From a bacterium (GTDB taxonomy: Bacteria > Actinomycetota > Coriobacteriia > Coriobacteriales > Eggerthellaceae), in NCBI GenBank assembly GCA_963621885.1, contig CAVFFT010000004.1, positions 12-64,011 of the forward strand: 64,000 bases of DNA. The letters run 5' to 3'. Shown piece by piece: positions 55,688 through 60,952 of the stretch. Made by a program: the position numbers and the translations under genes. Below the pieces are notes generated by a model. That model had not been told where the DNA came from and did not search any database. It was given only the letters and a program-made list of their open reading frames with translations. Every line of letters starts with the position of its first letter. The stretch's first letter is position 1.

Positions 55688-55731
55688 TAGGATTACGAAC
55701 GGTGAATTCCCCGTTGCGGAAGGTGGCCTGC

Positions 55732-57675
55732 ATGCCTAAAGAAGATGCGCTCAAGATAGTTTTGGCTCAAATCGAGGTCGTACCCGGCCAACCAAGCCGC
55801 AATTTCGAAACGATGGCAGCCTGCATAAAGAGAGCTCGCGAAGCTCAAGCGGACCTCGTGGTCTTCCCCGAAATGTGCGTCGGCGGCTATTTCCTCGCCG
55901 ACCGTTGGAACGACAACGCCTTCGTAGACTATCTCGATTCCTTCAACGAGAAGATTCGCGCCCTTTCGGAAGGGATTGGCGTGATTTTCGGCAATGTGAG
56001 CCGCCGCTATATGGAGCCCACGCATCGCGGCAAGGACGGCCGAATCGTGCGCTATAACACCGCCCTGTTCGCGCAGAATGGCGAATGGGTGCCGCGTTGC
56101 GGCAGCGACACCGCACCGGCAGGTCGCTATCTCAAGTCTCTCCAGCCGGACTATCGTATGTTCGATGACGAGCGCTATTTCCTCTCGTCGGTCGATGATG
56201 CTGAGTTTTATGAGGACAAGTCCTGGGAGCAGGACTGGCTTGCGCCTTTCGCATTCAAATGCGGAGGCCGCACGATTCGCATTGGCCTTCAGGTCTGCGA
56301 GGATCTGTGGTCAGGCGATTACGCACAGGATATCACCCGCTTTTATGCCGAAGGCGACTGCAACCTCATCGTGAACATCAGCGCTTCCCCATGGACGCTC
56401 AACAAGGACGCGGGGCGTGACAAGCGGGTTCTCGAGCATGCAAAAGAACTGTCGCAGATTCCCCCGCTCGCCTACGTCAATTGCGTTGGCATGCAAAACA
56501 CCGGTAAGAACGTCCTCTCCTTTGATGGCGGGTCTGCCCTCTATGGCTGCAAAGGTGAACGAATCACTTCGGCTCGCGACGATTTCGAAGAGGATTTCGT
56601 CCTAGTATCGCTTGACCTTGAGAATGGCGCGGCTGATATCGAGATTGAAGCGTCAGGCCCGACCTCTTACGCCGACGAGGATGAAAAGACGCTCGACGCG
56701 CTGGTGAGCACGCTTCGCCGCTTCGATGCCCAGACTTTCCCTTGGGGCCCCAAATGGATCATCGGCCTTTCAGGCGGCATCGACAGCAGCGTGACGGCTG
56801 CTCTTATGTATCTCGCCTTTGGCGGTCCTGACCGCATCGTCGGCTACAACCTCGCCACGCGCTACAATTCCGACGCGACAAAGATGAACGCTTACAATCT
56901 CGCGACAAGCCTCGGGCTTCGCCTGGTCAACGGCTCGATTGAGGACGTGGTCAACGCGACGGCAAGCGTTATGGCCCTGTATGGCTACCCCGAAGAGAAA
57001 ATCAGCGGCCTTGCACAGGAAAACGTGCAGGCGCGTTTGCGCGGCCACATGCTTTCGACCTTCGCTGCGGTTGAATCGGGCGTCATCATGAACAACGGCA
57101 ACAAGGTGGAATCGGCGCTTGGCTATGCCACCTTGTATGGCGACGCAATCGGGGCCATTTCTCCCCTTGGCGACATCACGAAGGCGCGCCTCTTCAGGAT
57201 TGCGCGGATTATCAACCGGCGTCTGGGTCAGGAAGTGGTCCCCGAGAATCTCATTCCGGAGCTCACTGAAGATGGCTACAACTGGGAAACGATGCCTTCA
57301 GCGGAGCTCCGCGATGCGCAAACCGATCCAATGAAATGGTTCTATCACGACTACCTGATTGAGCGCCTTACCAATTATCCGGGTTACGGAATCGAACGCA
57401 TCATGCGCGAATACCTCGATGGAACGCTGCAGGCAGGTGAAATGGGGAAATGGATCCGCTTCTACGGTCTCGACGACCCGAAAGCCTTCATCGAGGACAT
57501 CGAGTGGGTGAATGGCAAGATTGCAAAATCGGTCTTCAAGCGAATACAGATGCCGCCCGTCGTGACGGTGACGCGTGGATCCTTTGGCTTCGACATCCGC
57601 GAGAATCAGATTACGCTCGAGAAAACGCCCGAGTATCTCGAGCTGCGCGAGAAGATTCTGGCGCTCGCGAAATAG
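55732..57675 (+). CDS. nadE: Glutamine-dependent NAD+ synthetase
   Basis: N-terminal CN-hydrolase domain (VVFPEMCVGGY, ...VCEDLW) plus C-terminal synthetase GLSGGIDSSV. ATG 55732 follows GGAAGGTGG. Confidence 0.9.
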   Translation: MPKEDALKIVLAQIEVVPGQPSRNFETMAACIKRAREAQADLVVFPEMCVGGYFLADRWNDNAFVDYLDSFNEKIRALSEGIGVIFGNVSRRYMEPTHRGKDGRIVRYNTALFAQNGEWVPRCGSDTAPAGRYLKSLQPDYRMFDDERYFLSSVDDAEFYEDKSWEQDWLAPFAFKCGGRTIRIGLQVCEDLWSGDYAQDITRFYAEGDCNLIVNISASPWTLNKDAGRDKRVLEHAKELSQIPPLAYVNCVGMQNTGKNVLSFDGGSALYGCKGERITSARDDFEEDFVLVSLDLENGAADIEIEASGPTSYADEDEKTLDALVSTLRRFDAQTFPWGPKWIIGLSGGIDSSVTAALMYLAFGGPDRIVGYNLATRYNSDATKMNAYNLATSLGLRLVNGSIEDVVNATASVMALYGYPEEKISGLAQENVQARLRGHMLSTFAAVESGVIMNNGNKVESALGYATLYGDAIGAISPLGDITKARLFRIARIINRRLGQEVVPENLIPELTEDGYNWETMPSAELRDAQTDPMKWFYHDYLIERLTNYPGYGIERIMREYLDGTLQAGEMGKWIRFYGLDDPKAFIEDIEWVNGKIAKSVFKRIQMPPVVTVTRGSFGFDIRENQITLEKTPEYLELREKILALAK

Positions 57676-57973: not shown

Positions 57974-58462
57974 TTATAGAAACAGGAACATGAGCGCAAT
58001 TACGAGGCTCAAGCCGATTGCGCCGAAGCGAAGCACTTCGGAGAAGCTCGTCTTTCCTGAATCGACTCCCGCAAGAGAACCGCGATTCAGACCATCCAAA
58101 AGATACCAGGACAATTCGCCGCTCTTCACGGACGCGTAGGTGTCGGAAAGCACACGCGTAGAAGGCGCATACGGGTCGTAAGATTCACAGGCAAGATCTT
58201 GAAGCGTCATGCGCTGTGCAGGGCGAAGATAAGCCGTATCCGTTAATTGAGAAGCACCTGCGTAATGGGCGGCATTGCGACGGACAGAAGGGGAAGCGGA
58301 AATCGTCTGGTTGCCAAACGTTTCAGGCGCATCCAAACGCCGATGGGATTCATAGCTGCGGCGTGCAATGTCATAATCGATGACATGTTTATCCGCACCC
58401 TGAGGCTTTGGGTACGCAAGGGCCGAAGTTCCCTGGATTTCGTAGAGAAGTCGCTCAGACAT
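57974..58462 (-). CDS. Tail-anchored membrane protein of unknown function, divergent from lexA and LexA-box controlled
   Basis: 162 aa with a good SD (AAGGAGA). No domain I recognise. Single TM at the extreme C-terminus (FGAIGLSLVIALMFLFL then stop). Promoter TTGACG-17-TATTAT contains a Cheo box. Confidence 0.6.
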   Translation of the reverse strand: MSERLLYEIQGTSALAYPKPQGADKHVIDYDIARRSYESHRRLDAPETFGNQTISASPSVRRNAAHYAGASQLTDTAYLRPAQRMTLQDLACESYDPYAPSTRVLSDTYASVKSGELSWYLLDGLNRGSLAGVDSGKTSFSEVLRFGAIGLSLVIALMFLFL

Positions 58463-58475
58463 CCGATCTCCTTAC

Positions 58476-58505
58476 TTGCATAGAACCTTTGTTCGTGTTT
58501 ATAAT
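58476..58505 (+). promoter_or_regulatory. lexA promoter
   Basis: TTGCAT-18 nt-TATAAT; the spacer contains LexA box 1. Confidence 0.6.
58483..58494. promoter_or_regulatory. LexA (Cheo-type) box 1
   Basis: GAACCTTTGTTC, perfect GAAC-N4-GTTC. Confidence 0.75.
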
Positions 58506-58529
58506 AAATCGAACATTCGTTCCCGTCAA
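58501..58529 (-). promoter_or_regulatory. Promoter of the lexA-divergent gene
   Basis: Minus strand TTGACG-17 nt-TATTAT. The spacer contains LexA box 2, and the -10 overlaps the lexA -10. Confidence 0.5.
58511..58522. promoter_or_regulatory. LexA (Cheo-type) box 2
   Basis: GAACATTCGTTC, perfect GAAC-N4-GTTC. Confidence 0.75.
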
Positions 58530-58538
58530 TAAGAAATC

Positions 58539-58550
58539 GTACATATGTTC
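58539..58550. promoter_or_regulatory. LexA (Cheo-type) box 3, one mismatch
   Basis: GTACATATGTTC, immediately upstream of the lexA SD. Confidence 0.55.
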
Positions 58551-58560
58551 GGAGGAAGCA

Positions 58561-59214
58561 ATGTCAGAGCTTACGAAAAAGCAAAGGCTGGTTCTCGAGA
58601 CCATTGCGCGCGCGATTGACGAAAAAGGCTACGTTCCGGCCGTGCGCGAAATCTGTACTGCCATCGGCCTCTCCTCCCCTTCCACCGTGCAGGTTCATTT
58701 GAATAGCCTCGAGAAGGGCGGCTTCATCCATCGCGATTCTCAGAAATCACGCTCGATCACGATTACCGCCAAAGGCCAAGAGGAGCTAGGCTTGTCCGAG
58801 GAGGAGCCTGTCGTCTACCAGGAACCATCCGATTTCAACCTGATAACGCTTCCTCTCGTTGGTCAGGTTGCGGCGGGCGTTCCCATTCTCGCGGAAGAGA
58901 ACATCGAGGACAGAATCACCCTTCCCGTCGACATCGTGGGCGATTCCGCCTCTTTCCTGCTTTCGGTACGCGGCGAATCCATGATCGAAGCGGGTATCAA
59001 TGATGGCGACTACCTCGTAGTCAAAGAGCAGCCGACTGCGGTGAATGGCGATATCGTTGTCGCACTCATTGACGATGGCGCGACCGTCAAGCGCTACTTC
59101 CGCGAGAAGGACCATATCCGGCTTCAGCCCGAGAACTCCTCGATGGATCCCATCATCACGCGTGATTGCGCAATTGTCGGAAAGGTTGTCGCCCTCTTCC
59201 GCCGCGTCTATTAA
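58561..59214 (+). CDS. lexA: SOS repressor LexA
   Basis: Winged-helix N-terminus (LTKKQRLVLETI...SPSTVQVHLNSLEKGGFI), cleavage site VAAGVP, VRGESM and VVKE catalytic Ser/Lys. ATG 58561 follows GGAGGAAG. Confidence 0.95.
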   Translation: MSELTKKQRLVLETIARAIDEKGYVPAVREICTAIGLSSPSTVQVHLNSLEKGGFIHRDSQKSRSITITAKGQEELGLSEEEPVVYQEPSDFNLITLPLVGQVAAGVPILAEENIEDRITLPVDIVGDSASFLLSVRGESMIEAGINDGDYLVVKEQPTAVNGDIVVALIDDGATVKRYFREKDHIRLQPENSSMDPIITRDCAIVGKVVALFRRVY

Positions 59215-59442: not shown

Positions 59443-59454
59443 GAACATGAGTTC
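59443..59454. promoter_or_regulatory. Fourth GAAC-N4-GTTC box, inside the spacer of the putative tRNA-Pro promoter
   Basis: GAACATGAGTTC, 3 nt upstream of TATACT (59458-59463), which lies 8 nt before tRNA-Pro. Confidence 0.35.
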
Positions 59455-59471: not shown

Positions 59472-59548
59472 CGGGATGTGGCGCAGTCTGGTAGCGCGCT
59501 TGCTTTGGGAGCAAGATGTCGCAGGTTCGAATCCTGTCATCCCGACCA
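59472..59548 (+). tRNA. tRNA-Pro (anticodon TGG)
   Basis: Acceptor CGGGATG/CATCCCG, anticodon arm CTTGC-TTTGGGA-GCAAG, T-arm GCAGG-TTCGAAT-CCTGT, encoded CCA. Confidence 0.9.
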
Positions 59549-59886: not shown

Positions 59887-59973
59887 TGGTCGGGGCGGCG
59901 GGAATCGAACCCGCATGGGCTTGCGCCCGCGTGCTCCTGAGACACGCGCGTCTGCCTGTTCCGCCACGCCCCG
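59887..59973 (-). tRNA. tRNA-Leu (anticodon CAG)
   Basis: Reverse complement reads CGGGGCG-TG-GCGGAACAGGCAGACGC..., anticodon loop CTCAGGA, long variable arm GGGCGCAAGCCCAT, T-arm GCGGG-TTCGATT-CCCGC, then CGCCCCG-A-CCA. Confidence 0.85.
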
Positions 59974-60042: not shown

Positions 60043-60840
60043 TTATTTCTTGTAAAGTCTTGCAGACCCATCCCTTATTACCATGATCCTTTTTGCTCGC
60101 GGGTCTTCAAGCATGTCAACCACTGCGGACTCGATGGATTCGGCGTTCCCGTTTACCGACAGGTCGACTATCACGCTGTCGGACTGCAAGAGGCCATCGC
60201 CCACCCGCGACCTTGCCTTTGTCGGATTCTCGGTTGAGATTCGCTTAATCTCCCATAGCTCACCATCAAGCCTGATGTCTGGAGTGTGGTCACCCTGTCT
60301 GATTGATGGAACAAGGAATTCAATCTCATGCCCTTTGCGAGATAGCCAGGATGCGAGCTGGATTTCTTTGCCTTCAGGTTTCGCCCCATGCTGGCAAATG
60401 ATTACCCCTTCAAGCTCATAGGTTTTCACGAACTGCTCGAAGACCCCCGCGTAATCGCGTGCGATTTTCCACTCGTGCCATACCTTTGGTACTGACTGGT
60501 TGATAGCTTCGGCTTCAGCCTTAACGCCCGCTATCGGGAGATCATAGAAGCCATCCTCGTAACGAACCATGGACTCAATGCGTTTCCATGTCCTATACGC
60601 AACCATCGGGTCATGCCCTTCCACCAACTCCGCCATCGGGTGTCCTCGAAGCCCGGCACGACCTTGCAGTCGCAGCCGCGATGGAAGTGCATGAATTCGC
60701 CTGCCGTCTTGCGCGAATGGTAGACCGCGCCGCGCGATGCGAGCATCAGGCAGAACACGCAGTTCTCGCGTCCCGTCGTCACGCGGGCGAACCCCACGCC
60801 CTTCTTGCGGTCGCGCTTGGCGTAGGATCCAGATAAACAA
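60043..60840 (-). pseudogene. 5'-truncated, frameshifted remnant: phage MuF-type head-morphogenesis C-terminal tail fused to a PD-(D/E)xK nuclease-like (toxin-type) domain
   Basis: Track frame 60531..60977 reads ...GFARVTTGRENCVFCLMLASRGAVYHSRKTAGEFMHFHRGCDCKVVPGFEDT. Track frame 60043..60840 continues PMAELVEGHDPMVAYRTWKR... and ends with ...GDHTPDIRLDGELWEIKR.... The switch lies near 60637-60645. The region is visibly less GC-rich. An intact sub-ORF from ATG 60636 (197 aa) remains. Confidence 0.5.
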
Positions 60841-60877: not shown

Positions 60878-60952
60878 TGGCTCCTCGGGTAGGACTCGAA
60901 CCTACAACCCTCCGGTTAACAGCCGGATGCTCTACCATTGAGCTACCGAGGA
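60878..60952 (-). tRNA. tRNA-Asn (anticodon GTT)
   Basis: Reverse complement reads TCCTCGG-TA-GCTCAATGGTAGAGC-A-TCCGG-CTGTTAA-CCGGA..., T-arm GTAGG-TTCGAGT-CCTAC, then CCGAGGA-G-CCA. Confidence 0.9.

Follow-up and report, generated by a model that had tools for sequence, protein, structure and literature searches.

A conserved tail-anchored protein gene divergent from lexA in Eggerthellaceae is a candidate SOS cell-division inhibitor

The lexA locus and its divergent partner

The window analyzed here, a 64,000-nucleotide stretch from the genome of a gut actinobacterium of the family Eggerthellaceae (contig CAVFFT010000004.1), contains lexA and, reading away from it on the opposite strand, a 162-amino-acid (aa) open reading frame (ORF) that we refer to as gene X. 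Profile scans assign LexA to TIGR00498 and identify its LexA_DNA_bind and Peptidase_S24 domains. The start codons of the two divergent genes lie 98 bp apart, and the ATG of gene X is preceded, five bases 5', by the Shine-Dalgarno (SD) sequence AAGGAGA (Table 1). Taken together, the conserved sequence features described below make it very probable that gene X encodes a LexA-repressed, tail-anchored membrane protein, with LexA binding in vivo and induction by DNA damage as the expected behavior. A role in cell division is a further step, which we consider after the evidence for the gene, its promoter and its protein.

An earlier reading of this DNA, the original prediction, had placed three LexA boxes and two promoters in the 98-bp divergent region, and all of them are indeed there. 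The gene X promoter, found by a consensus scan, consists of TTGACG, a 17-nt spacer and TATTAT and agrees with the consensus at 10 of 12 positions. The promoter of lexA (TTGCAT, 18-nt spacer, TATAAT) has a perfect -10 hexamer, and it was missed by the scan because its -35-like hexamer shares only three of six positions with TTGACA. The -10 hexamers of the two promoters were said to overlap; they do so by 5 bp, and their elements are conserved in relatives. With start sites predicted ~7 nt downstream of each -10, box 1 sits within the spacer of the lexA promoter and covers the predicted start site of gene X, and box 2 sits within the spacer of the gene X promoter and covers that predicted for lexA, so that the proposed arrangement of one box per spacer, with the other box over the start site, holds for the predicted start sites.

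GAAC-N4-GTTC is the LexA operator of Gram-positives and actinobacteria, and an operator conserved in front of lexA is a classical sign that the gene is autoregulated. Boxes with at most one mismatch are not above chance in the window as a whole (25 observed versus 26.6 expected). Exact boxes number only three in the 64 kb, two of which lie between gene X and lexA, and of 300 shuffles one had three boxes clustered inside 70 bp. The third exact GAAC-N4-GTTC box (GAACATGAGTTC, window 59443-59454) is located 18 nt upstream of a tRNA-Pro gene (59472-59548). We considered this site as an operator and set it down to chance, because about one exact match is expected per 64 kb; it is probably not an operator.

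Table 1 Coordinates of gene X, lexA, their promoter and operator elements, and the protein motifs of gene X in the window
Feature	Position	Strand	Basis or remark
Gene X coding sequence, 162 aa, stop codon included	57974..58462	-	ORF list, homologue, dN/dS, family profile
lexA, 217 aa	58561..59214	+	TIGR00498 E 6.7e-64; PF01726 and PF00717
Gene X SD AAGGAGA	58468..58474	-	Read from sequence
Gene X -35 hexamer TTGACG	58524..58529	-	Promoter scan; conservation
Gene X -10 hexamer TATTAT	58501..58506	-	Promoter scan; overlaps lexA -10
lexA -35-like hexamer TTGCAT	58476..58481	+	Conserved in relatives; uncalled by consensus scan
lexA -10 hexamer TATAAT	58500..58505	+	Read from sequence; conserved
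LexA box 1 GAACCTTTGTTC	58483..58494		Exact palindromic arms
LexA box 2 GAACATTCGTTC	58511..58522		Exact match; arms conserved
LexA box 3 GTACATATGTTC	58539..58550		One mismatch; within lexA 5' leader
N-terminal motif 1, residues 7-16 YEIQGTSALA	58415..58444	-	G11 and A14 invariant, L15 at least 90% (A1, A2)
N-terminal motif 2, residues 27-38 VIDYDIARRSYE	58349..58384	-	Aligns with II.FPG (A1, A2)
Juxtamembrane motif, residues 125-137 LNRGSLAGVDSGK	58052..58090	-	Consensus L..G...G in A1 and A2
C-terminal transmembrane helix, residues 146-162 FGAIGLSLVIALMFLFL	57977..58027	-	Runs to last residue

The divergent regulatory region is conserved in relatives

Searching the window LexA against one genome per species yielded 80 loci, mostly from Eggerthellaceae, with Paraeggerthella, Raoultibacter, Adlercreutzia, Senegalimassilia, Slackia, Ellagibacter, Berryella, Hugonella and Curtanaerobium among the genera, together with many metagenome-assembled genomes (MAGs). 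Our alignment comprised 70 distinct regions upstream of lexA, from loci with a LexA ~60-93% identical to the window LexA. Nearly every position was 90-100% conserved in cTTGC.TA and box 1 (GAACCTTTGTTCG), in the TA...TA core of the overlapping -10 hexamers and box 2 (CGAACAAA.GTTC), and in TGTCAA and box 3 (AAACATTTGTTCG); the bases between and outside the boxes and hexamers were near random. By element, conservation amounted to 89-100% per position for box 1, 93-100% for the arms of box 2, and 91-100% for the.AC....GTTC core of box 3, which reads AAACATTTGTTC in most relatives. The promoters are held just as tightly: five of the six positions of the lexA -35-like TTGC.T are 94-100% conserved, the GTCAA of the gene X -35 is 100% conserved, and the key A and T positions of the gene X -10 reach 97-100%.

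The same arrangement recurs, with identical layout, in three further independent metagenomic contigs reached via protein homologues. The LexA-type boxes and promoters of the original prediction are thereby seen in 70 regions and three extra contigs, and gene X is a lexA-divergent gene with LexA operators in the shared intergenic region.

The gene X -35 accompanies the ORF itself. Box 2 followed by the GTCAA -35 was present in 70 of the 71 distinct regions carrying the ORF, and the GTCAA -35 was missing from eight of nine regions without it; in the ninth, the contig ends 104 nt upstream of lexA. At six loci without gene X (L023, L034, L065, L077, L078 and L079), nrdR comes next and is divergent from lexA, and the intergenic region has only two boxes, 25-26 bp apart rather than 28, and no TGTCAA. 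These loci represent either a loss of gene X with operator remodelling or an ancestral state.

One Slackia MAG (L084) departs from the pattern. Its intergenic region is rearranged, with one recognisable box left, and 183 nt separate lexA from the start of its 105-aa family member, which has a GTSALK motif and the terminal helix. Because only this single box remains, the regulatory layout cannot be called universal. Elsewhere the nearly invariant 75-bp element, comprising two promoters and three operators, offers a model of one repressor that would act through shared sites on two divergent promoters.

Gene X is a protein-coding gene with fast-evolving relatives

We estimated the ratio of nonsynonymous to synonymous substitution rates (dN/dS) for 20 pairs by the Nei-Gojobori method. 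It was 0.12-0.58 in 18 of them, the synonymous sites of the other two being saturated, and the comparison of gene X with a 51%-identical homologue gave 0.12. Judged by these substitution patterns, gene X is a genuine protein-coding gene under purifying selection. The alternative that the ORF is a chance reading frame, and that the boxes regulate lexA only, would fit a protein that is unnamed in databases and has no known domain. We consider it barely credible: dN/dS is below 1 in every estimable pair, ~70 lineages share the SD, the start position, the motifs and the terminal helix, and the ORF comes with a -35 of its own.

Single-sequence searches, word-indexed as well as exhaustive, returned only a handful of unnamed relatives; exhaustive phmmer gave 11. 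One of these 11, a 2810-aa Ig-repeat protein (P0008), was rejected as an artefact, since six identical weak matches to its repeats had raised its score. The nearest distinct relative (P0002) is 51% identical to the gene X product and stands in the same context, namely priA, a sigma-70 factor gene, a 65-aa gene, lexA with divergent gene X, nadE, nrdR and dut. LexA is 93% identical between the same two strains, and gene X therefore evolves much faster than lexA. A profile search of 5.8 billion proteins gave 41 matches, all of them unnamed and domain-less. As a check on membership, a family profile built without the window clade was searched against 840 six-frame segments of the window; it aligned gene X end to end (E 2.4e-5 at Z 1e6) and matched no other segment.

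Among the 80 loci, almost all lexA-divergent ORFs start ~100-120 nt from lexA and nearly all end in a hydrophobic helix. Most have an SD of the GGAG or GGAGG type at the same distance as in the window. Conservation next to lexA, which the original prediction had left to be checked in relatives, thus extends across Eggerthellaceae. That prediction had also recognized no domain in the protein, and the profile and structure searches it proposed produced no credible match. The gene X product matched nothing in Pfam or NCBIfam at E up to 1. Across 42 family members there was no Pfam match at E up to 0.01, and these members and the window ORF had no match in NCBIfam, PHROGs or PADLOC. A sequence-profile search of the PDB with the family profile was likewise negative.

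Family members range from 23 to 163 aa. Those lacking the N-terminal motif described below include proteins of 45-60 aa (L016, L022, L043, L051 and L056). Three Adlercreutzia/Enterorhabdus-type loci (L061, L062 and L067) encode a 23-aa peptide, MSRYEFPVVFTLSALVSFFIFFA and variants thereof, which is a transmembrane (TM) helix only and would escape standard gene callers. It lies ~115 nt upstream of lexA on the opposite strand and retains SD and promoter along with boxes 1 and 2; box 3 is below the one-mismatch threshold at these loci. By this comparison of members, the family core is the terminal helix with the juxtamembrane segment, not the long N-terminal part, because members shrink to a 23-aa helix behind the same SD, promoter and operators.

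The gene X product has a tail-anchored architecture

The full-length architecture consists of Y...GT(S/A)ALK, ~10 residues, II.FPG, a variable linker, L..G...G, basic residues and a ~20-residue helix running to the stop codon. The module formed by GT(S/A)ALK and II.FPG is optional, with G[TSN][STAVN]A[LM] found in 59 of 71 members, and the window clade has (V/I)IDYDIARRSYE in place of II.FPG. Within the juxtamembrane motif, conservation of G132 is 90% or more. At the C-terminus, the uncharged run has a median length of 21 aa and extends to the stop codon in 69 of the 71 members, with 0-2 residues after it; the 15 residues ahead of the helix contain a mean of 2.6 K/R. In the terminal helix, 36% of residues are A, G or S, and the last 20 residues carry no charge.

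No N-terminal signal sequence was seen across the 71 members, and the bulk of the protein should therefore be cytoplasmic. A single TM segment within ~30 residues of the C-terminus, positive charges on the N-terminal flank of this segment and the lack of a signal peptide are the features of bacterial tail-anchored proteins, and the gene X product has all of them. A tail-anchored product with its N-terminus and bulk in the cytoplasm is thus well supported by the residue pattern. AlphaFold2, run with a 36-sequence alignment, gave a predicted template modelling score (pTM) of 0.29 and placed a confident helix only at residues 140-161, with a predicted local distance difference test score (pLDDT) of 81-92. 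The topology assigned by the original prediction agrees with both the uncharged run to the stop codon and this terminal helix. Other helices in the model (residues 30-44, 87-94, 101-113 and 116-127) are isolated, without a globular fold, and the linker is probably disordered. A Foldseek search of the PDB with this model returned only a meaningless match (E 1.8).

A large subgroup of ~110-aa proteins (A2, P0012-P0047) has a juxtamembrane block, SSEMYCSL(K/R)(F/Y)E(D/S)..GC.Y, mostly with two cysteines. The block could serve as a metal or redox site, or as a surface for a specific contact; the window protein is without it.

The nrdR-dut genes adjoin gene X in most members

In the usual order, lexA is divergent from gene X, and gene X is followed by nrdR and dut. 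This order holds for 55 of the 71 members, with the genes on the same strand and a gap of 54-293 nt between gene X and nrdR; only some ten gaps contain a strong intrinsic terminator. Gene X and nrdR are 1.7-3.3 kb apart in the window clade and in eleven other members. In the window this interval holds nadE (55702-57675, + strand; compare L087 2052-3446), which encodes a glutamine-dependent NAD synthetase and is convergent with gene X.

A gene order of this kind exists in Mycobacterium tuberculosis as well, where Rv2720, Rv2719c and Rv2718c are lexA, a divergent small membrane protein gene and nrdR; the nrdR-chiZ-lexA order there matches that of the 55 members. The comparison suggests that the lexA-nrdR interval is an old conserved slot with a changing occupant.

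The proximity of nrdR raises the alternative that the LexA-controlled leftward promoter mainly serves nrdR-dut, supplying deoxynucleotides on damage, and that gene X is a minor or regulatory upstream ORF. The short same-strand gap in 55 of 71 members, the scarcity of strong terminators and the position of nrdR itself divergent from lexA where gene X is absent all speak for it. We nevertheless regard it as very unlikely. Where 1.7-3.3 kb (in the window, the opposite nadE) splits gene X from nrdR, gene X, its SD and its promoter are retained, and gene X is under purifying selection with conserved motifs and helix. Since loci without gene X lack the GTCAA -35 and the third box, the promoter travels with gene X and not with nrdR.

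Comparison with known SOS-induced membrane proteins

To our knowledge, the Gram-positive lineages studied to date each have an SOS division inhibitor of their own, unrelated to the others, beside lexA. YneA, ChiZ, DivS and SosA are mutually non-homologous single-TM SOS division inhibitors divergent from lexA (PMC6851548). YneA binds TM7 of FtsW through its TM helix, and AlphaFold 3 models indicate that ChiZ, SosA and the 29-aa SidA may also target FtsW (PMC13396833).

Close parallels are YneA (Bacillus subtilis, Listeria) and ChiZ/Rv2719c (M. tuberculosis), which, like the gene X product, are small, have a single TM segment and are encoded divergently from lexA. Both are LexA-repressed and damage-induced and delay septation (PMC6851548). 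Their TM segment is near the N-terminus or in mid-protein and is followed by an extracellular LysM domain, which is needed for YneA activity, whereas the gene X product has no LysM (no PF01476 match) and no extracellular C-terminal region, its bulk being cytoplasmic and its helix terminal. The original prediction had drawn this distinction, and the lack of a LysM match and a helix ending at the stop codon bear it out. No sequence similarity to YneA or ChiZ was detectable. In a weak test with an unverified ChiZ sequence, the family profile gave a probability of 0.2% and no similarity; the same unverified sequence had no match among PDB sequences.

SosA (Staphylococcus aureus) and DivS (Corynebacterium glutamicum) resemble gene X in adjoining lexA, lacking LysM, being lineage-restricted and evolving fast. 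Both are SOS-induced, and staphylococcal SosA orthologues share only 25-60% identity (PMC6851548). SosA, a protein of 77 aa, has its TM segment at residues 10-30; its conserved membrane-proximal segment and its functional C-terminus are both extracellular, and DivS is also described with an extracellular C-terminus (PMC6851548). Relative to these two, the gene X product has the reversed topology and no NCBIfam or Pfam match.

SidA of Caulobacter crescentus, which is LexA-controlled, consists of 29 aa that are essentially one TM helix, and it blocks division via FtsW (PMC13396833). The 23-aa Adlercreutzia-type members are similar to it in size and character and in their LexA boxes; the 162-aa window protein differs, and in most members of the gene X family a cytoplasmic extension of 40-140 aa, with conserved motifs, is added to the helix. 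The host of SidA is a Gram-negative alphaproteobacterium, and its gene is not known to adjoin lexA.

Escherichia coli, too, has small, hydrophobic membrane peptides under LexA control, the type I toxins TisB (29 aa) and DinQ, which are amphipathic, charged, antisense-RNA controlled and membrane-depolarising. Gene X could encode such a membrane-perturbing peptide, whose helix would insert into the membrane on damage, lower the proton-motive force and cause growth arrest or persistence in place of a specific divisome block. At its smallest, the family consists of 23-aa hydrophobic peptides governed by the same LexA-type operators, and the helix is the only universally conserved element of the family. 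We hold this alternative to be unlikely. The gene X helix is uncharged and rich in small residues (36% A, G or S), unlike the amphipathic charged helix of TisB; the SDs are strong and exposed, unlike those of typical type I toxin loci; and no antisense gene is evident, because the lexA and gene X transcripts diverge from overlapping -10 elements. By these sequence features gene X does not have the makeup of a type I toxin locus, in which a charged amphipathic helix goes with a cis- or trans-encoded antisense RNA and a translationally inert primary transcript. In addition, most members carry the conserved cytoplasmic module, suggesting a specific partner, and the lexA-divergent position is a hallmark of division inhibitors.

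Gene X belongs to the lexA-linked functional class by position and regulation only, because it departs in structure from every family named above. On present sequence comparisons, the gene X family is an unnamed family outside all named families and within the LexA-divergent functional class.

A proposed role in cell division and the points that weigh against it

Based on its position and the analogy with YneA, ChiZ, DivS, SosA and SidA, we propose that gene X encodes an SOS cell-division inhibitor, a reading that we regard as plausible and evenly poised between right and wrong. Gene X would be transcribed from a sigma-70-type promoter back to back with that of lexA. In undamaged cells, LexA dimers on boxes 1 and 2 would occlude both promoters at once, since each box combines the spacer of one promoter with the start site of the other, and box 3 may add autoregulation of lexA. 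Upon DNA damage, RecA-stimulated self-cleavage of LexA would free both promoters, and the joint production of X and fresh LexA would generate a self-limiting pulse of X. The helix, together with the G..G/basic juxtamembrane segment, may bind a membrane component of the septal peptidoglycan synthase or of the divisome (FtsW-FtsI or FtsQLB) and delay septation. The N-terminal module (GT(S/A)ALK and II.FPG, or IDYDIARR in the window clade) might tune this activity, either as a proteolysis handle in recovery or as a contact to a cytoplasmic division protein.

Several points weigh against this proposal. No publication about the SOS response in Coriobacteriia or Eggerthella turned up in a literature search. 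In YneA, the TM helix on its own localises without inhibiting (PMC13396833), and the effector part of YneA and SosA is extracellular (PMC13396833, PMC6851548); the analogy with these proteins is incomplete, because the gene X family is without an extracellular part. The N-terminal module, conserved in 59 of 71 members, is unexplained by a model centred on the TM segment and suggests an important cytoplasmic interaction. No FtsW/SEDS protein was found among the multi-TM ORFs scanned in the window, which were an MFS transporter, a Na/H exchanger, an Mrp/Nuo-type antiporter subunit and UbiA. Finally, the gene X promoter may serve more than gene X, because nrdR-dut follow, mostly without a terminator.

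The conserved N-terminal motifs bear on two related alternatives. In the first, the gene X product acts as an adaptor fixed in the membrane, with the helix serving as a mere anchor, and in the SOS response it recruits or sequesters a soluble partner; candidates for such a partner are FtsZ, SepF, a repair or translesion synthesis (TLS) factor, and a protease. GT(S/A)ALK and II.FPG contain the best-conserved residues of the family, including the invariant G11 and A14, they stand in a fast-evolving, poorly ordered region in the manner of short linear motifs, and the tail-anchored topology places them in the cytoplasm. Set against this, 12 of the 71 members, some of them a helix only, have no motif and yet keep the promoter and operators, the motifs match no known family or structure, and no partner can be named. 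We consider the adaptor function rather unlikely. The second, a damage checkpoint operating from the cytoplasmic face, in which the N-terminal motifs capture a cytoplasmic division or replication factor such as FtsZ or SepF and hold it at the membrane, appears a little less probable still. If correct, it would be a mechanism unlike that of the characterized Gram-positive SOS inhibitors, all of which act via extracellular parts, and it would explain why the lexA-nrdR slot was kept across Actinobacteria while its occupant was replaced or remodelled.

Returning to the proposed division inhibitor, we know of no lexA-adjacent SOS division inhibitor described before in Coriobacteriia, which include the drug-metabolising gut genus Eggerthella and its relatives. 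The gene X family is a candidate for the missing lexA-divergent SOS gene of this class, with an unusual, inward-facing topology, and as a tail-anchored family with no extracellular domain it would widen the group of such genes. The family forms a natural series of deletions, with 163 aa at one end and a helix of 23 aa at the other, which may mark the minimal functional unit. Should the helix alone block septal synthesis, it would provide a compact natural probe for FtsW and the divisome in Actinobacteria.

A CdiA_C-like ORF downstream of lexA

The tRNA-rich interval (tRNA-Pro, Leu and Asn) between lexA and the sigma-70 factor gene contains a 265-aa ORF (window 60043-60840, - strand), located between tRNA-Leu (59887-59973) and tRNA-Asn (60878-60952). 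Its residues 186-258 match the CdiA_C toxin domain PF18451 (E 2.4e-7; 31.3 bits versus a cutoff of 26.6). The closest relative (L001) has only a 65-aa gene in the corresponding interval, and the window ORF may be an orphan toxin module or an insertion.

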